64,000 nucleotides of DNA from Phoronis australis (Eukaryota > Animalia > Phoronida), in assembly GCA_002633005.1 (NCBI GenBank), contig NMRA01000035.1, forward strand, positions 1,021,059 to 1,085,058, given 5' to 3'. A program made the position numbers and the translations under genes. The notes under the pieces are model-generated. The model ran no database searches and was not told where the DNA came from. It was given only the letters and a program-made list of their open reading frames with translations. Below, one piece after another: positions 5,137 through 59,477 of the stretch. Positions within the stretch are counted from its first letter, which is position 1. Each line of letters opens with the position of its first letter.

Positions 5137-7748
5137 ATGTGCACAATTTGCTTGACTGTGTTTTGCAAAATACAGATTGCCTGCATTTCAAATATTTTAC
5201 TTAAAAATAACTCCATGATTGCTTACTCAATTGATACTTCAAGCAAACGCCCTCACTGACTTCAAATAACTTTAGCATATAAGTCCCACGGAGGGATAAT
5301 CGAGTCAAACCAAAGTCACAAACTTTGAAGTCGTATGAATCGAGTTAGCAACGCGATATGATGTGTAATTTAGAATGTTAACTCACCGTCTTAAAGAACC
5401 AAAACAATGTTTCCACCCCAAAACATGTATCAAAACAGTGTTCTTTTCAAAGAGGGTGCCACATGGGGCTTAAGCGCCCATACTCGGCTTAAAGTCCACC
5501 GCGTTACTTTTTGAGATTTCTTACTTGTGTGCTTTGGGTTTTAACCTTGAAGAATAAGGAATGCAACCCATGGTCTGTAGTTTTGACAATTTTATATTTG
5601 AAAGTGTGTCAGGTGAAACTATTCAGGGTTATTTGTGCTCCAGTAGTTTGTGCCAATTGAAAGGTGCGTTACTTTACTGTAATTAACCTATTGCCAGGAT
5701 TTTGAGTGACAGCTTAACTGACCAATCAGAACGCAGCATTCTTGACACACCTGACAAACAGCCTGTTATTTTTTAAAACTTATTGTTCATTTGTCGACTT
5801 TTCGCAAGGGAGCGGAGCTTGCGTTAGGTCAATTCTGAGGGCTTTTAAGTCATGCATTAGTTGCCTAAGAGTTGTGTTTTACTACACCGTTGCTTGCATG
5901 TTGTTAACAAGTGTTGATTTGGTTGCACATTGTGTTACTCCTGGTGAAAAGAACTGCTATGATTGGCTAGTACAGAAGGACAAAGGTTTCCACTTGGTGG
6001 TGGATTTACGAAAACCAGGTCCCTAAACTGAGCTCAGGTTAGAGCTGTTACAAGTGCGAAATTCTCTTACATTTGGTAATGATGCGCACAGGTGTCTTGG
6101 TGCTACCAACCATAAAGAACTAAGTTCTACATTTTTAAGCTTCAATTTGTTTTTCTATCAACCGTTTGTGCATTTTTAGTAATGGAAATCTTTTGTGTGC
6201 CATTTTCTTTTGTGACAGAGTCTCCGAGGCCTTCTCTAGTAAGAAATCAGATGCATATCAATGACTTTAAACATTTTCTTGGAGCTCCTAATCTTTTGCT
6301 TGCTTTCTTGTTTGCGACCCACCCTGCTGTGCCTGTTGCCGGAAACAAAAATTGAAAACTGTTCTACTTTTGTACATGTGTATTTTTACTTGCTTAAAAT
6401 TAATGGTCACAAACTTCAGGTCTTAATCTTCCTTGTCCTTCCGGGCTCCCAGCCTTCTTGAGGCCCCTGCGCTCAAGCCTTGCCAGCCTTATGATTAATC
6501 CGATTACATTATTTTTTTTACAAATAACAGGTTTGCAAATTTTATACACTGGTGGAGTTCAAATTTGAATGTTTTGCGATATTTGTATAGCGACAAGTGC
6601 AAGGTTTACAACGTGTGGGTCCATGAGCACCCAGAATTGTAGGGTCTTGTTGTTGCCTCCATGTCATGTAATCAGATATACCTGTTTCTTTGTGTTGTGA
6701 CTCTCACACTTGAATTGAAGGTTGCACATTTTGGTCTTGTGGGAACCTTGGGCGCATGATTTTTTAAACCAAATTTGAACTTTGCACTGTTATTTTTAAA
6801 TTATCGTATAAGTGCAGTATAGAATTGCGCTTTAAAGTGTCGTAATTTCACAAACTAAAATCTTTATGGCATTATGTATTTGTTTTTTGATCTCTAGGTG
6901 AAGGAACTGTTTTTAAGAGCTTTAAGGGGGGATTACTTGTGTTAGATACAGCCCTTTCTAAAATATAAGTATGGTATATTTTCAGCATTACTTTCAAAAT
7001 GGCCATTGGCGACTGTAGAGAAGTGACATAAAAGCCTAGTGAGAGGCCTATGTCTTGCTGTGTGTGCATCAAATGCCATTTATCAAGCACAATCACATAC
7101 ACAGACTTATCAACAGCCAGGAAGTCATTGTTTGCCCTGTGGAAGCAGAGACACACGAGATCTGGCCTTTCGCTAGACTGTTTAAATCACTTTCCTATTG
7201 TTGCCTGGCACGGAGACTTGTAATTAACACTGAAAATGTGGGAAATAACCAGAAACTTTCACTTTTAGAAAGGGTAATGTTAAAAACACTTGCGTATTTT
7301 TCATTTTCAAGTTGTTAGTTCATATCAAGTCTGTAACCATAAAATGACTTTTTGTATTGCACGTGTTGACCCCTTGCATCTATATAATTTTACCAGTGCC
7401 AATTATTGGATATAATGAGTTGCCTTTTTGTATTGGATGTGGGAAATACGTTTCAGCACCATAAAACTCGCATAAGTTGGACATGCATAAGTCCGCCAAA
7501 TGTAATGGTATGGTTGTTCTAGTACGTAGACTTCTTTCCGTAAGTTGAATTCACCATACTCTGATAAAATCTCGATTCTGTTGGATGCTATGTCTGCGAA
7601 TTTTACTGTATTGCATCTACATGTCATTAAAATATTATCACATATGCATTGCGTTTATTAAAAAAAAAACAGCAGCAAAAGTGACTGAGTTTACTTTTCC
7701 ATGACCAAAAGGTACATAAGCTTGAGCAGTAAAATTTCCCTCATGTAA

Positions 7749-7754
7749 TTTATT
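7749..7754 (-). promoter_or_regulatory. Candidate poly(A) signal of SelU/PRXL2A (second AATAAA at 7654-7659)
   Basis: tttatt on + equals AATAAA on -, ~70 nt downstream of the SECIS core. Confidence 0.55.
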
Positions 7755-7799
7755 CACATCTAAAGACATCCGTCAATTCAAATTTCTTGTTGAACTAAA

Positions 7800-7885
7800 A
7801 ATTACCATGCAGGTCCAAGTACATCAGGTGGAAGTCTTCTTAAATTTCATCCTCCACCGTCATCAAACGAATGTGTATGTGCATT
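7800..7885 (-). promoter_or_regulatory. SECIS element (eukaryotic, type II-like) in the SelU/PRXL2A 3' UTR
   Basis: Minus strand reads AUGAC-GGUGGAGG-AUG-AAA-UUUAAGAAGA-CUUCCACC-UGAU (7863->7823). It has the UGAN/NGAN kink-turn quartet, an 8-bp helix II (7 Watson-Crick + 1 GU) and an unpaired AAA 11 nt after the core. It lies ~1.03 kb after the stop codon and upstream of AATAAA. Helix I is weak by eye. Confidence 0.88.
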
Positions 7886-8895
7886 TAAAGTCCAAGAGAA
7901 ATATAAAACTGCGTACAACATTACAGCAAAATCTCAACAGTTTCAGACAAAAACAATTACTAAACTTCCACTATTCTCATTTTTCAAAGGGTTCTTACAT
8001 TTTTGTGAAGTCCCAGAATTTTTTGAAACATTGTTTGATGAAAGCTATAATGCAGAATTTGAACATGAGTAAAGCGTTCCTTTTTTGAAAAAATGAGAAA
8101 ATAAAATTTCTCATGTCAGACATATTGTGTCCTAAACTGGCGAGATTTTACCCATTCATCACTAACTGTTACAAACATTGTCTCAATAACTTAACAAAGA
8201 CACTGAGTACTATCCAATCTGTAAACACATTAAAAATATCTTTGAAATTTGTTTTTGGTTGATTGAAGGTACCGGTAATTGCCAATACCTCGCTGTTAAA
8301 GCACAAACCACTCCAAATCAAAATGATTGTACAAGGAAATGTTGTGAACTTTCATCTCTAGTGGATGTCGAAGCATTCTGACAGCATTATTTCAAATTAC
8401 AAACTGTTTATCAGGTCGCATGATTTCCGCCACGACAGAGGAAAACAACACCTTAAAATAAAAATGTGCATGCAACAAACTTAAAATAAACAAGTGGAAA
8501 TGCTTTTCCTTTACGCTACAACCTGAATAAAAGGAACAAATAAAATTTAAAAAAGTCCATAATCCTTTATCACAGACATAACATTTAAATAATGTTTTTT
8601 TCAATTCAAGCTTCTTCACCGAGGCTGATAACCATCGAACATTACAAGCATGATATATATAGAATGTGATTAGACAAGATAGTTCATTTATATTTTTCTT
8701 CTGTCAATAAAGAAATTGCATCCATACATGTAAGAAAAGCTACAAAAATTGACATGTTATGCATATGAACAGTAAGAAACGTATTGTAGTTTTCACATGT
8801 ATAGTTGGTGCAGAGTACTATGGAATGTAATGTGAACAAAATGATGAAAATTTCCCTTGTACATTGTTTAATATTAATAATGAACCAGCAAGCAT

Positions 8896-11800
8896 TTATA
8901 ACTTTGCACTGGGTTTGGGAGCTATTTTATCAACAGCGTCCAATATGGCCTTTTTAGATGTGATATCGCCGAACTCTTGTTCACGGTGCTCTAGTAAAAT
9001 TCCTTGATCACCTCGACCCATTACGAACAGCCCTGCGAAATACAAGAAAAAAGTGTGTAGTCTTGCCATGCACGGACAGGGACACACAGCTAGTATGACT
9101 ACAAGGTGGGACATGTAACAGCATCAATGATCGCTGTTTTGTTTCAATTTCACTTCTGTAAGAAATACTTTGGAGTGAAATTAGGCAAGTCAAGACTAAG
9201 TTTTGCAACTGAACTAAGACCGGGGTTAAGGTTATCTAGGACCTTAATAAACAACCTCAACTCTTAAGTCAAACATCGAAAAAACTATGCTTTGTTAACC
9301 ATTACAAATTTATATTTTGTGTAATGAGAAAGAATATCGAGGATTCTAGAAATATGCTTCTTACTACTATGTCTAAGAAAAATTTTCCTTTGCAAGAAAG
9401 GTACATTCATACCAAAATAACCCCCCCCCCAGCTGATTTTACTGAAACTTGTTTGAATGAAAACTTTCACGAAAACAACAACGGATTTAAAACTTGACAT
9501 GTTTCGGTGTCATTTATTAAACACCATCCTCAGAAGTCATAATACAGTGGCCACCTAGCTAGGCCCAGCAACAAGTAATGAAGCACAGATACAGTCAGTT
9601 ACAGGGAGTGACAATGAACTATACCAACAATGACAACCTGTGGTGTGTCAGTTGCCTATTGAGATTGGGCTTGCACCAACTGATATGTAAAGCCTCACGA
9701 ATTTTAAGCTCCTTTGTTGTTACTGCCTGGTCTATTATTGCAAAGTCATTGAAAGAGCACTGCTGATAACAATGATTGGAGCTCTGCAGGTGAATATTTA
9801 CATGTGAATTACTGTCAGAATTTAGATGTTCCTTGGTCCTGGTTTTCAAATGGCGAACAGTTTCGCCTATATAACTGGAGCCACATCCAGCACAGTGTTT
9901 AATAAATGACACCGAAACATGTCAAGTTTTAAATCCGTTGTTGTTTTCGTGAACATATGCTGTTACTTGCTATCATGGAAATGAAAACTTTACGTTAAAT
10001 CTCAAAACACTGTTAGGACTTTGCTGTAAAATGCCTAGTTTTCACATACAGAGTGATATATGTATAAGACCGTTATTTTTTTACAAAAATACTTTATTTA
10101 CTAAGTGAATAATCAAAAATTCCTCAATACAAAAACCGCATTCAATTTTGGCTAAATTTCCTGAAACTTGATTGCTTTTGCACCTAGCACTTAACTGGAA
10201 TTTCACTTACTATGACCAACAGAATAACTGAATGGCATAATAATGGCAAATGGATCTGTTCCACAACAATGTTGTTTAACTAACTGCGAAAAAAATCCAT
10301 TTCATAGCCGAATAACTCGAACATAAAGTGTTTTCAGCAAAGCTATGGCAAAGTACAATATAAAGTGGCTCTCTGTATTAGCAAACAAAATGCAAAGGTG
10401 CAAAATGTAGTAAAGTAGAAATTTATAAAGTACCTCCCATTAACCGCCCTTCGCCCTCTAAGTTGTTGGGGAAGCCACTTGACGCTGCACGGTACGCATT
10501 TTTGAAGAATCCAGGCCGCAAAAAGTTGGCCAGAAACATCCAGTTTTCCTTGGGACCATAGAACTTTCTCTGCAAACAGATTCATACCCAATTATTACAG
10601 TCTTAAATTGCTGACTTAAAGAAACCGTGAGGACTGCATTATGGAACTTTTGTCACTTACAATTACCTTTAACATGAAATTTAATTCTAGAAAGTTATTG
10701 TCCGTTCCTGTCATTTCTTGTCTGCAGCCACAGTCAAAGCGTTTCAGCTGCTCAAAAGACGGTGATTAAAAAGACTGCTTTCAAATCAAAATCCAGCATC
10801 AAAAAGAAAAATAAATTCACCATAACTGCCCGAGTATAAGCTCGGTATAAGCTGAGGTACACCAGGGCTTGATGTTGATGGTGGCTCTTTATGAAACAAG
10901 GACTGAAAAAGATGCACCAATGGGGAGAGGGTGTCAGGATCGTTTTGCATTTTTGGCCAAGAGAAAATTGAGGAAAGCGAAAAATAACTGGAGATTGAGT
11001 GAAATCTGGTGACTTGTCACCAGAGGCATCTTATAGTAGCCAAACTGCCCGTTGATTAAGTGAAATCGAATAGCAGACTTAGTTCAAGTGAACAAAAGTT
11101 AGACCACAGTGGCAAATAATCTGTTTCTGAAACAGCCCTCCTGGGAAATTCTGAGGATGCAAAATCACTTTGAGGAAAGTGGCCATTTTGGAAGCAGCCT
11201 CCAGGAAGTTCTTTCAAAAATTCCGTTTCCAACTTTTGTTTATTCTTGTGTATAAACCCATCTGCTCTCGTATCAACAAACATCACATACATCTTGGTCC
11301 ATATCAAATTCATCAGATCATTTCCTTTGAATGGCGCAGTGTTAATAGGACAAAAAGCATTATCTCTAGGATTCATGGTGCCTCAAGACGGGCCATTACC
11401 GTATCTTTTGTCAAACGGTTATTTAGAAGAAATAATTACAAGCAGACCAAGGAAAACAAGTTTAGGTAGAGGAAACACTATTCCAACCCAGTTCGTAATA
11501 CTCGATTAACTCAGTGTGACCCTATGAATGATAATCAGAGATGTCATGAATTCTCATGAAGTTAATTAAGTGCAAATTTCATCATTTCCTATGACGTACA
11601 ACTTTCCCAACAAAACAGTTTATGTTACATAACAATTCCAGGACATCTTGTGTTGTTGTTTACTATGTCACTAACCAGTGCCCACTCATAGTGAAACCCT
11701 ATATGCCAGACAGCTGTTCAGACTCCATTAATGTTTATGGTTTGGATGAAATCACCGGAACTTTCAATATTGTTGTCGTTTTGCACTCACTACCCACACA

Positions 11801-14800
11801 TATTTCTATTCACTATATATATTGTAGCTAGAGTTAATAAACTTTGTGTGTCAGTAGAAAATCAACGACTGTTAGTTTTAATGCTGCTCTCCATCGACTT
11901 GTTGTTGCTACCTTGTTAGCCAACTATCTACCGTTCAACCAAGAACCGGGTAACATTACACAACTATGCTATCACGGCCTATCCCACATTACTCGAGCCG
12001 TATTCTCCACAAGACACCAATAGGTTCAAACATGAAAGGGGTAAAACATCTTCACCTGGAAACTGTTTAACTGAGATTCCAGTGGTAACTGGCAACACGT
12101 AGTGAAGCTGCCTCGGAAAGCAAGATTCAAACCGCGTGTGTGAACCGCAACAGCATCATGTGAAGTACAAGTCACATTCACAGTTGTGGAATTACGAACA
12201 GAGTTGATATAAACCCACGTGTAAGCCAATCCCCATCTTCGAACCACCCAAATTGCAGGCCCTGGGGTTCATACTCGGACTGGTACAGTATATTTTGAGA
12301 TTGAGAACAACCATTTACCTTGCTATCTAGGAACACTTCTCCAACTGTGAAATATTTTTCCTTGAATTCTGGGACACCCACATCCTCGTGGACAACAGCA
12401 TAAACTGGCACATCACGAGCCCTTAGGTCAGATTTGTGCAGAGAGGACAACGCATCGGCTTCCTGAAGAAGGCAGAACGGGCTTCATGAAGCCTCATCAT
12501 GAATGCTTTTACATTGCAACAGAGGATTCTTTACACAATAAATATGATTTGTTCAGGTAAACTTGAGCTACATTTCACATTAAAAGGTTTAAAAGAGTCT
12601 GTAAATCTATTCCTTTCCATCACAAAGGCCAACTTTTGATTCAGACCGCTTAAAATTAGGAAATTTGTCTCAAATTTTACCTGCGTCAAATAAGAGAGAA
12701 TTTATTGTCTTGTGAAAATCAAGGCCATTATTGCTAGAAACCAAGCTCCAGGTTTATTTCAGATGTCGCAAACTGTCTCGAGCAATGAACTCTCAAATTT
12801 TTCCAAGCCCAGAAACGACATCTCATATGAGTTAGGAACAAGTTGAGACTAGTTTGAGAGCAGTAAGAGGTCTTACTTTAAAGTCATCTCCTTTGACAGA
12901 ACACTGCGGATTTATAGTCGTTTTAAGTGATTGGGAACACCATTTTTTATCAGAAAGAACCCTGGCCAGAGATCAGTTGTTTAACTGACACACCCAGTAA
13001 TACTTGATGGCAACAGTCTGATATAACGTGCCGGTATTTTGAGAACCAGTTTGATGCCCGTTATTCAGAGGAGAAAACTGCTTCTCAAAAATCGAGAATG
13101 TTATATCTGACCATTAACAAACTCGACAGCCCTTGTCAGATTGTATTTTCTGGGAAAAGAGTTCACAGATAAGATATGCAGGGCTATTGGGGAATGCAAA
13201 AAGCTAGTTACAAGATGCACCATGATAATTGGTGTTCATAGTCCAAACGTAAAGTAAATAACATATAAATCGATAAGTGAAAAAATTAACTTGAAATTGG
13301 GACGCTTGCCACTAATCTGGTCTGACACATTTAGAAGGCCACCGCTGACCTCACTAAGGAAAATTTTGTCAGTCAAAATTCCCAGCACTTGTTGATTTTT
13401 TTTTAGTAAATCAGTTTTCAGTAAAAACATTTTTCACATAGGGAAGTGCACTTCCTAAATGTAGTATGGTGGAAGCATTGAGCAAGAAATCAGTTGTTCG
13501 GTAAATGTACATCACTGAACAATATTAAGAGACCAACCTCTCTGCACAAAAATCATCCAGTTCGTCGCACCACCATAATTACTGCACCATTGTCTTTCCA
13601 CAGGTCACTGGCCTGTAAATACAGAGAAATTGGCAATCGTCAATTATAGGGGTCCAGCACTTTGAGAACTAGTTTGATGCCTGTTATTCAGTGAAGAAAA
13701 CTGGTTCTCAAAATGCGGGGCCCCTGAAAGTAACTAGGTTCGAGAATATATATATATATGTATATGTATATGAATATATATATACATATATATATATATA
13801 TGTGCATAAGAAAATGGAGCCCAGCTATACGTCTGGTATTTTTCGACATCATTAGAAAATTGAAACAATACAAAAGCAGTGTACCGCACCAACTTTGCAT
13901 ACCAAGAAATGCAAACATGCCAAACAATGAAGCAGATGACGCAGATGACGGTGCAAAAAAACATCAACATATCTGTTGATCTAACAATTAAAATACAAGC
14001 CATCAAAAGTGCCATTCCAAAGTGAAAACTATTGGAAATAATTTTTCAAGCTTGTTTTTACTAGGAAACGTTTTTTGCATTGGGACACAAATTTGCAGAG
14101 ATTCTGAGTTTGAACAAATTTTGCTTGATAGGTGCAGGAAAAATTTATCCATAACCTATAGGATTCGTCGATTCAGTACACAACAATTCAGATTGTTATC
14201 TGTATACTAAACCACTAGTATAGGTGCATATGTTGTACAACACTGACTGCGAAGTGTCATTGTATACCTACAGGGGCAACATAATTTTCCAGTGTTCACG
14301 AATCCTTTGGGTACAAGATCATTTGAGAAATTTATCATGTATTTTGCCTGAATATTTCTTTGATTTCAAAATACAGGTGAATGGCGCTATCGACTAGTAA
14401 AACATTGGTAAAACATAAAACAAATACTATTTGAAACTTACAGCTGTGAGTGTGGTCAGGAAGTTGCAGCATTGCGTTCAGTATTCGCCGATGCGCGCGA
14501 ACCGAAAACATGAACGTTGAAAGAAAAAAATGAGATAACATGTACAGCACACAACTCACAAAATGAACCGTGTCACACTGGATCTGAGCTTGCCAAATCT
14601 AGCGCTATTTGGCATATAGTAAATCTAGAATCAGTAACCAGTCAATAGAAATGATCTAGAACCAAGACACAAGCATATTCCATGAACAGGTGACTTCATC
14701 AGACTTTTTACCTTGAATACTCTTGGCTCATCTCCAAATGTCTTCAGGTCTGTGTCAGCCAAGTACTCCAATGAGGCCTCCGTGCCAGTTGACGGCCAGT

Positions 14801-14858
14801 TGCAGTATATAGCCACAACTGCGACTACCCCCGCAGTGGTCCACAGCCACGATCCCAT
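8896..14858 (-). CDS. PRXL2A: Selenoprotein U1 / peroxiredoxin-like 2A (FAM213A, AhpC-TSA-like thioredoxin fold), 212 aa, Sec at codon 69; exons 14858-14712, 13612-13538, 12462-12319, 10569-10434, 9032-8896
   Basis: Spliced product: MGSWLWTTAGVVAVVAIYCNWP...ASLEYLADTDLKTF...VFK|ASDLWKDNGAVIMVVRRTG-U(TGA)-FLCRE|EADALSSL...VPVYAVVHE...GEVFLDSK|RKFYGP...NNLEGEGRLMG|GLFVMGRGDQGILLEHREQEFGD...PKPSAKL*. All introns are GT-AG with phases 0,0,0,1. It matches PRXL2A motifs (LEYL, AVRRPGCFLCREEA, FYGP, GNLEGEG, QGILLEHREKEFGD). Confidence 0.95.
9468..9979 (-). mobile_element. Penelope-like retroelement 3' fragment (GIY-YIG endonuclease + pseudo-LTR) with inverted terminal copy
   Basis: ORF 9619-9912 has GIY-YIG-type CAGCGSSYIGETVRHLKTRTKEH...LKIREALHISWCKPNLNRQ. 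Perfect 59-bp inverted repeat 9466-9524 / 9895-9953. A 12-bp direct repeat aatgaaaacttt at 9456-9467 and 9980-9991 is a probable TSD. Confidence 0.88.
9492..9537 (-). ncRNA. Minimal type I hammerhead ribozyme (Penelope pLTR type)
   Basis: Minus strand reads ACUU-CUGAGGA-U-GGUGU(UUAAUAAAUG)ACACC-GAAAC-AU-GUC-AAGU: intact core, stem I ACUU/AAGU, stem II GGUGU/ACACC, palindromic ACAUGU stem III. Predicted cleavage after GUC (9496/9495). Confidence 0.8.
13020..13115. repeat. Short hairpin-forming interspersed repeat, copy 1 (others at ~13661-13713 and ~19961-20065)
   Basis: Shared core tttgagaaccagtttgatgccc...gagaaaactg(g)ttctcaaaa, with inverted arms (ataacgtgc...ttttgagaa / ttctcaaaa...gttatat). 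Confidence 0.7.
13538..13612 (-). CDS. PRXL2A: SelU exon carrying the in-frame UGA (Sec) of the UxxC redox motif
   Basis: atttacag|GCC AGT GAC CTG TGG ... CGA CGA ACT GGA TGA TTT TTG TGC AGA GAG|gttggt. The exon is 75 nt, phase 0/0, with TGA at 13555-13553. Confidence 0.93.
13746..13803. repeat. Imperfect (TA)n microsatellite
   Basis: atatatatatatatgtatatgtatatgaatatatatatacatatatatatatatatgtg. Confidence 0.9.
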
Positions 14859-15787
14859 CTCAGCCTCCTTCGGGTCAACTCTATTAATAATAAGATAATT
14901 AACTAATACTCAATTAACCAACAATTAGGAGGACGAACAGAGCTATTNAGAGAATCTGAGTTTGAACAAATTTTGCTTGATAGGTACAGGAAAAATTTAT
15001 CCGTAACCTATAGGATTCGTCGATTCAGTACGTAACAATTCAGATTGTTATCTGTATACTAAACCACTAGTATAGGTGCATATGTTGTACAACACTGACT
15101 GCGAAGTGTCATTGTATACCTACAGGGGCAACACAATTTTCCAGTGTTCACGAATCCTTTGGGTACAAGATCATTTGAGAAATTTATCATGTATTTTGCC
15201 TGAATATTTCTTTGATTTCAAAATACAGGTGAATGGCGCTATCGACTAGTAAAACATTGGTAAAACATAAAACAAATACTACTTGAAACTTACAGCTGTG
15301 AGTGTGGTCAGGAAGTTGCAGCATTGCGTTCAGTATTCGCCGATGCGCGCGAACCGAAAACATGAACGTTGAAAGAAAAAAATGAGATAACATGTACAGC
15401 ACACAACTCACAAAATACTGGATCTGAGCTTGCCAAATCTAGCGCTATTTGGCATATAGTAAATCTAGAATCAGTAACCAGTCAATAGAAATGATCTAGA
15501 ACCAAGACACAAGCATATTCCATGAACAGGTGACTTCATCAGACTTTTTACCTTGAATACTCTTGGCTCATCTCCAAATGTCTTCAGGTCTGTGTCAGCC
15601 AAGTACTCCAATGAGGCCTCCGTGCCAGTTGACGGCCAGTTGCAGTATATAGCCACAACTGCGACTACCCCCGCAGTGGTCCACAGCCACGATCCCATCT
15701 CAGCCTCCTTCGGGTCAACTCTATTAATAATAAGATAATTAACTAATACTCAATTAACCAACAATTAGGAGGACGAACAGAGCTATT
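14097..15787. repeat. Tandem duplicate (14097-14947 / 14949-15787) spanning an N; contains SelU coding exon 1 twice; probable haplotype-overlap artifact
   Basis: The two copies abut the single N at 14948 and differ by a few SNPs and one 12-bp indel. The exon copies 14712-14858 and 15552-15698 encode identical peptides. Confidence 0.85.
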
Positions 15788-20500: not shown

Positions 20501-21912
20501 CATATTATTGAAAATAGAGAGGTGCCTTTTAATATAACATCCCCTATGGTAAGGACTTTAGGCCCAGTTATCTGATACATTATTTGTATATGTCTCAAGT
20601 AAAAGATGAGCTCGTGATAAAGACCTTACAGAATGTAACATTTGTGAATAAACAAAGTCTAAAAATGCCCTGAAAATTTAGGTTATATAGCTGAGTCCCT
20701 GTTGGGAATGTTTCAAACCACTAAGTAGTGGATACGGACAATTTGCAAATGCAATTATGATCCAACCAAAGCCCATTATGAAACTTATCTGATAAGACCT
20801 GTTGACCAAAACATTTGATACTGCCGCTTGATTTATTCACATTTTTTGTGTGCGACAGGTTGTTTAAAATGATGATTACTTTATATCAAACACTTGTAAA
20901 ATCATCACAGTTTTTATTCTCTGATAGTGTTATGTACATATCTCCAGTATGTGCATTGTTTTATCAAAATGTACTGTTCCCGTTCATCAATATTTACGAC
21001 TTGTTCTGAAACGCGGTATTGATTTTTATCCCAGCTTGGTTTTGTGGTCAGGAACTGACCTCAGATTAAGCTACAGTACTTACCTGTGCATACTAAGACA
21101 CTTTTGCTTTCCATTCGCAGAAAATGCTTGGACATCAAAATTTTGTTTTATTACTTATAGATGATTCTCTAAGTAGTTATTATGTGAATGATTACCAGTG
21201 TAGAGTATTTTGGTCTTCCATTGTTCTATGCTTACAAGTTAGTGTATGGTGAATATTACAGACATAAAAGGATTTTGTTGTCACTGTAGTGCACAGCAGT
21301 CTCAGCATATTTTTATGTTTGCCAAGCTTAAGTTTTATCTCTATTTATTTTAATAAACACATGCTGTGCCATATCAACATATGTCAATACAGATCTTACA
21401 TAAAGAATGTATGTTACCTTTCTCTGGAGTATTGGTTTTGATTAGATATTGATTAACGGCTACATATTCTGGTCTGATCATAGTTAACCCTGGGTGTCTT
21501 GGGTGTCTCGTTGACTCATGCATAGGTAGTCACAGGTAGTTAAGGTGTGGCTTAACACCTGGATCTAGTTAGAATGATGGTGTTTCACTGTAGTAAGTCA
21601 CGGAATTTTACAGAGATAGGGTGGTACCGATTTGTATTTGTAAGTTTCAGGAAATGTGCTGATTTCTTTGTATTTTGCTGTCAAAATTTTCCAAATGCAA
21701 ATTGAGTTGTAAGTATTTTTAGTGGATACTTGATTAAAAATGTTATAATCTGTGGTTAGAATTGCAAAGAAATGACAAGATGAGGTATTAAGAAAGTTCT
21801 TTTTTCTGTAGGTGTCCATGTGATAAGCTTTGAGGATAGCTGTTCCCAAAACAAATGTCCGTCCAGATGAATCTCAAGAGGAGAATTCTCTCAAAGCTTT
21901 AACGAAGAAATT

Positions 21913-59477
<37,565 letters not shown>

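Follow-up and report, generated by a model that had tools for sequence, protein, structure and literature searches.

A predicted SECIS element within the 3′ UTR of a spliced Phoronis australis SelU1-type gene

The SelU1-type gene and other features of the window

The window analysed here is a 64,000 nt stretch of Phoronis australis contig NMRA01000035.1. A gene model on its minus strand comprises five coding exons separated by GT-AG introns; joined, they give a 212-codon frame that contains a single in-frame TGA. Coding exon 1 (14712–14858) was predicted from a GT donor in frame 0, and the protein aligns to its relatives from residue 1–7. The TGA (13555–13553) lies in coding exon 2 (13538–13612), where it is codon 69 and belongs to a UxxC motif of the thioredoxin type. 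Coding exons 3 (12319–12462) and 4 (10434–10569) follow, and the last coding exon (8896–9032) ends in a TAA at 8898–8896. Transcription was assessed with three stranded RNA-seq runs (X2, X3 and X4), about a fifth of each being read, and with a fourth run (X1) that is presumed to be RNA and whose contig is spliced. Three of the four introns, those between exons 2 and 5, were spliced as predicted in all four runs, with joints at 12461/13537 and 9031/10433 and on both sides of exon 4.

An AhpC-TSA_2 domain and a (U/C)xxC motif, as expected of a SelU1/PRXL2A selenoprotein, were found, the motif at codons 69–72. Exon 3 by itself matched the domain (PF13911) with an E value of 0.0016, a match that falls short of the curated cut-off, and the domain was present in eight of nine homologues scanned. 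The predicted protein was 37–53 % identical over 135–205 residues to its six best matches. Seven clusters were looked up, of which three were named PRXL2A/FAM213A and none SelU2 or SelU3, the rest being unnamed or hypothetical. Two word-indexed protein searches with single SelU1 exons gave no matches. With exon 5 as the query, HMMER returned 38 matches; seven of these were long proteins sharing four to five short stretches and were discarded as unrelated. The initial annotation had assigned a hairpin in this region to SelU, and the assignment is supported by the spliced UxxC gene lying upstream of the hairpin and by the occurrence of both TGA and SECIS in related loci (see below).

Approximately 850 bases containing coding exon 1 are tandemly doubled, at 14097–14947 and 14949–15787, with a single N at 14948 between them. 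The copies are identical at 832 of 839 aligned bases, with one 12-base gap, and the second holds a near-identical exon 1 at 15698–15552. Judged from its sequence, this tandem is likely to consist of two haplotypes joined by the assembler.

Several other features were observed in and around the gene. Exon 2 lies between two copies, 80 % alike, of a short repeat that has inverted arms inside it (13008–13111 and 13631–13734), and deep two-strand reads with loose ends point to a high-copy, MITE-like family. Within the last intron, a minus-strand open stretch of 100 codons (9622–9921) resembles a GIY-YIG endonuclease. Its top Atlas clusters (0.95–0.96) carry PF01541 on 17–31 % of their members, and the stretch itself had no Pfam match. 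A perfect 59 nt inverted repeat (9466–9524 and 9895–9953) lies there, with reads on both strands. We presume this stretch to be the remnant of a Penelope-like retroelement. On the plus strand, exon-like frames at 21871–22287, 44448–44903 and 58365–58700 between them have a PDZ domain (E=1.4e-14), a run of prolines and an FH2 domain (E=2.4e-10). Their sequences suggest one long PDZ-bearing formin gene, which we take to be delphilin-like. A further plus-strand exon-like frame, at 2410–2868, matched fibronectin type III weakly (E=0.044). A scan for bacterial promoters and terminators, of no relevance here, was empty.

Structure and chance expectation of the predicted SECIS hairpin

A hairpin with the core of a SECIS element lies on the minus strand at 7823–7863, and the motifs listed in the initial annotation were all confirmed on checking of the sequence. 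The AUGAC side of the core is found at 7863–7859 and the UGAU side at 7826–7823. Eight consecutive pairs, including one G-U, join 7858–7851 with 7827–7834 as helix II (7827–7858), which closes a 16 nt apex. The apical AAA (7847–7845) lies 11 nt past the core, and the core itself is 1032 nt 3′ of the SelU TAA, where approximately 1 kb had been estimated. Helix II had a pair probability of 0.91–1.0, both when folded alone and in a context of 300–560 nt; values of 0.96–1.0 went with a folding energy of −10.1 kcal/mol. Below the core, constrained folding and the Rfam alignment placed an internal loop and a short, weak helix I (7810–7873, limits approximate), consisting of four pairs, including a G-U, with further short stems.

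The core, the apical AAA and helix II agree with published descriptions of a SECIS. The core is A-UGAC/UGAU, an instance of UGAN/KGAW preceded by an unpaired purine, as in the definition given in PMC3753652. An A-run stands at the fixed distance from it, and the AAA column is the same in all seven aligned related elements. Helix II, for which the structural definition in PMC2647825 gives 11–16 bp, falls at the short end. It has eight standard pairs, and including the four pairs of the core brings it to 12, which is our own reading of how that definition counts. The mRNA to which the element belongs has a UGA in frame, and the element lies in its 3′ UTR, at a spliced UGA-to-core distance of 1464 nt.

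Comparison with related loci was made through a metagenome scan, in which 15 loci were fetched and 14 kept; one (L015) was dropped, with 24 residues matched and 66 % GC. TGA occupies the Sec codon in every one of the seven loci that extend over the active site. SECIS-like elements were found in eight of the 14, at 240–1094 nt past the stop codon, and four of these eight matched Rfam SECIS_1 with 24–42 bits, two of them exceeding its cut-off. No clear SECIS was found in the other six loci, which include four of the seven with TGA (L001, L005, L008 and L013); the downstream sequence in these four spans 102–1186 nt, with two having only 102 and 417 nt. In two of them, L005:191 and L001:307, TGA stands at the Sec position and the 1186 and 573 nt of downstream sequence, respectively, gave no SECIS, which may be farther downstream or atypical. 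In four public protein records of relatives (P0005, P0011, P0025 and P0028), the region of the Sec codon is missing or the sequence begins just past it. These gaps are the usual mis-annotation of selenoproteins.

A covariance model (R1) was built from seven SECIS of the related loci, with the window excluded and the element of L007 omitted as misaligned. Its top match in the 64 kb was 7813–7873, with 32 bits and a rough E value of 3e-4, and the next match had 12.9 bits. L007 scored 22.5 bits (E=0.018), while L006 and L009 gave weak matches (16.9 bits, E=0.27) and were left out of the SECIS count. When the window element was added to the alignment (eight elements), both sides changed in nine of the ten pairs of the helix II register, and covariation was 0.846 in register vs at most 0.411 when the register was slid. 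Both R1 and these pair counts lean towards the consensus because the seven model elements were picked by SECIS pattern.

In an E-value threshold search, Rfam SECIS_1 matched 7814–7871 over the whole model (1–64) with 19.0 bits, equivalent to an E value of 1.8 over 4227 families, at which level it stood among chance matches, and approximately 4e-4 for the SECIS_1 model alone. At the gathering score, no Rfam match was returned in the 64 kb window. The match is full-length, and its 19 bits are below the gathering score of 35. That score (RF00031) is set for purposes of curation and does not describe the biology, and the hairpin falls under it because helix II has only eight standard pairs and is accompanied by a weak helix I.

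These figures bear on the reading in which chance produced a SECIS look-alike and the gene either represents a pseudogene broken by its UGA or relies on another element. The sub-threshold Rfam score agrees with that reading, as do the folding z-score of 7790–7900 (−1.32, no better than shuffles) and a mean of 0.5 matches per shuffled whole window (20 shuffles) to a SECIS-like pattern with at least eight consecutive pairs. The hairpin alone proves little, since chance would supply such a pattern this often. The observed element was the one match to this pattern on either strand of the window, and it falls on the sense strand of the SelU1 UTR; when this 1256 nt UTR was dinucleotide-shuffled 2000 times, the same pattern arose in only 18 of the shuffles. 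The case for a SECIS is carried by this placement, and the element is more than chance would provide there. Its rank as the top R1 match in the window, the splicing and expression of the gene and the TGA common to all seven relatives also oppose a look-alike, which is very improbable.

The initial annotation further described a small, type II-like mini-stem at the apex, which folding did not bear out. Three pairs can be drawn (7844–7836, 7843–7837 and 7842–7838, within 7836–7844), and a type II SECIS would hold the AAA in a bulge under them, with protein binding stabilizing the stem. Type II is the commoner form, with 224 elements vs 62 of type I in the survey figures of PMC2647825, and a mini-stem is present in folds of the related L003, L007, L010, L011 and L012. 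However, the relatives of like length, L002 and L014 (40 nt vs 41), fold without it. By folding, the apical helix III that characterizes type II had a probability of at most 0.04 in both alleles of the element: 0.00 in the window allele, at a cost of 4.3 kcal/mol, and 0.02–0.04 in a second allele, at 2.1 kcal/mol. The second allele combines linked changes at 7844, where a U-G pair becomes C-G, and at 7839, a loop base. It was seen in 25 of 33–34 reads of X2, six of 23 of X3 and none of 56–57 of X4. That it turns a pair of the mini-stem into C-G and otherwise alters just a loop base speaks for type II, but one allele is one event. An apex working as an open type I loop is favoured by about three to one, and the type II form is possible, though clearly the less probable. 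No variants were seen in the core and helix II, where 0.67 were expected, which gives no evidence of constraint.

Transcription of the 3′ UTR and the proposed poly(A) switch

In all three stranded runs, sense depth continued unbroken out of the last exon and across the hairpin, with no joints in the UTR, which is thus transcribed and unspliced from 8895 to 7688. The ratio of depth at the SECIS (7839) to the mean of three coding sites was 1.41, 1.17 and 0.79 in the three runs and 0.98 when pooled. The two contigs of X1 leave 8242–8261 open, so that no single record joins the coding exons and the SECIS. The initial annotation had named mRNA 3′ ends upstream of 7863 as the finding that would count against a SECIS; because sense reads traverse the hairpin and run to approximately 7690, this objection does not apply. 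Most steady-state SelU1 mRNA includes the SECIS.

The first canonical poly(A) signal past the SECIS is an AATAAA at 7749–7754, 69 nt past the core, close to the approximately 70 nt noted initially. Sense depth fades between 7794 and approximately 7690, with 16.4 in the bin 7693–7743, approximately 1 in 7642–7692 and 0–0.08 in 7591–7641, and one X1 contig ends at 7688. Since both reads and contig pass the expected cleavage site of AATAAA 7754, this signal is not the sole 3′ end, and AGTAAA 7695 or AATAAA 7659 (within 7654–7695), at which depth drops, may therefore also serve. A crude coverage model did not tell apart 3′ ends near 7730, 7670 and 7638. The SECIS is retained with any of the signals at 7754, 7695 and 7659.

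A regulatory switch had been proposed in which earlier poly(A) sites in the UTR remove the SECIS. The equality of SECIS and coding depth does not bear this out, nor does the number of AATAAA signals between stop codon and SECIS, which is zero. The sole A[AT]TAAA in that interval is a candidate ATTAAA at 8867–8872, whereas 2.4 would be expected by shuffling. It speaks for a reading in which the SECIS is functional and a proximal site near 8850–8808, the use of which is regulated, yields a SECIS-less mRNA. On such an mRNA the UGA would act as a stop, giving a product of 68 residues and a likely NMD target. An mRNA whose stop codon lies well upstream of the last exon junction is typically degraded by NMD. 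The UGA precedes that junction by 295 nt, so an mRNA lacking the SECIS would probably undergo degradation and be under-counted in the reads. Consistent with a proximal site, depth in 8549–8718 was 0.34–0.39 of coding depth in all three stranded runs, and nine molecules started at 8808 in X4, where the adjoining depth was 32.

The dip in depth is open to another account, as it coincides with the most AT-rich part of the UTR (GC 0.29 vs 0.33–0.43) and depth tracks GC, with a Spearman correlation of 0.59 in X4 (P=0.003) and 0.37 in X2 and X3 (P=0.08). Depth also regains the coding level farther downstream. The pile-up at 8808 may represent duplicates or a proximal 3′ end. No hexamer was found 15–35 nt upstream of it, and none of the 24 loose ends listed carried poly(A), a further 17 rows lying outside the listing and X2 and X3 being too shallow to show the pile-up. 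Precedents for the loss of a SECIS exist in human SELENOP and SELENOS, and these are the cases known: in the literature consulted, a SECIS-less poly(A) isoform was found neither for SelU nor for any invertebrate. Regulated use of a proximal site is unlikely, although a minor short form may exist. The idea of a second, SECIS-less SelU1 mRNA made by cleavage 50–90 nt past the stop codon, which would set a selenoenzyme against a truncated, degraded product, is about as improbable.

Interpretation and comparison with known systems

The reading that best accounts for these data, with a probability of approximately 0.93, is that the hairpin is a standard eukaryotic SECIS of a spliced SelU1 (PRXL2A-type) gene and is predicted to recode its in-frame UGA. 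It is supported by the place of the hairpin in the UTR, the sense-strand reads, the best R1 match and the TGA and SECIS of relatives. By analogy with established SECIS biology, the tandem G-A pairs of the core would form a kink-turn to which SBP2 or SBP2L would bind. Together with eEFSec and Sec-tRNA, the bound protein would recode codon 69, which precedes the SECIS by 1464 nt once the mRNA is spliced, and a 212-residue redox protein would result. In the human SECIS elements described in PMC2761289, a G-C pair at +2 plus a U three bases before the AUGA (−7) were linked to weak recoding. The present element has both marks and is therefore predicted to be weak, if the human rule carries over.

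In annotation, the locus should be given a Sec residue as its codon 69 and a 3′ UTR approximately 1.2 kb long. Standard Rfam screening misses the present SECIS. Selenoprotein biology is unchanged by the element, as a Sec-form SelU1 with SECIS has already been described for invertebrates; such forms are reported for invertebrates and fish in PMC3473315 and PMC13134290.

In comparison with known systems, the element is very likely to be a true SECIS, though slightly atypical, and the SelU1 gene that carries it is an ordinary one. With the eukaryotic SECIS of Rfam RF00031, as defined in PMC3753652, PMC2647825 and PMC2761289, it shares the A-UGAN/KGAW core, the G-C first pair above the core and the AAA 11 nt above it. 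Its 3′ UTR location is also the same, far beyond the minimum UGA-to-SECIS distance of 51–111 nt. It differs in having only eight standard pairs and a weak helix I, and its assignment to type I or II is not clear-cut. The gene has the UxxC of SELENOU1/SelU1/PRXL2A (FAM213A, C10orf58; PF13911) at the family position. It reads RRTG before the TGA, in contrast to RRPG in all seven related loci, and its stop-to-SECIS distance of 1032 nt is at the long end of the 240–1094 nt range in those loci. The proposed switch follows the same logic as the human isoforms made from SELENOP through an alternative poly(A) site and from SELENOS through alternative splicing, in which loss of the SECIS makes the UGA a stop codon. 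The human isoforms are demonstrated in the accounts of PMC5133445 and PMC3628699, whereas the SelU1 switch is a proposal.
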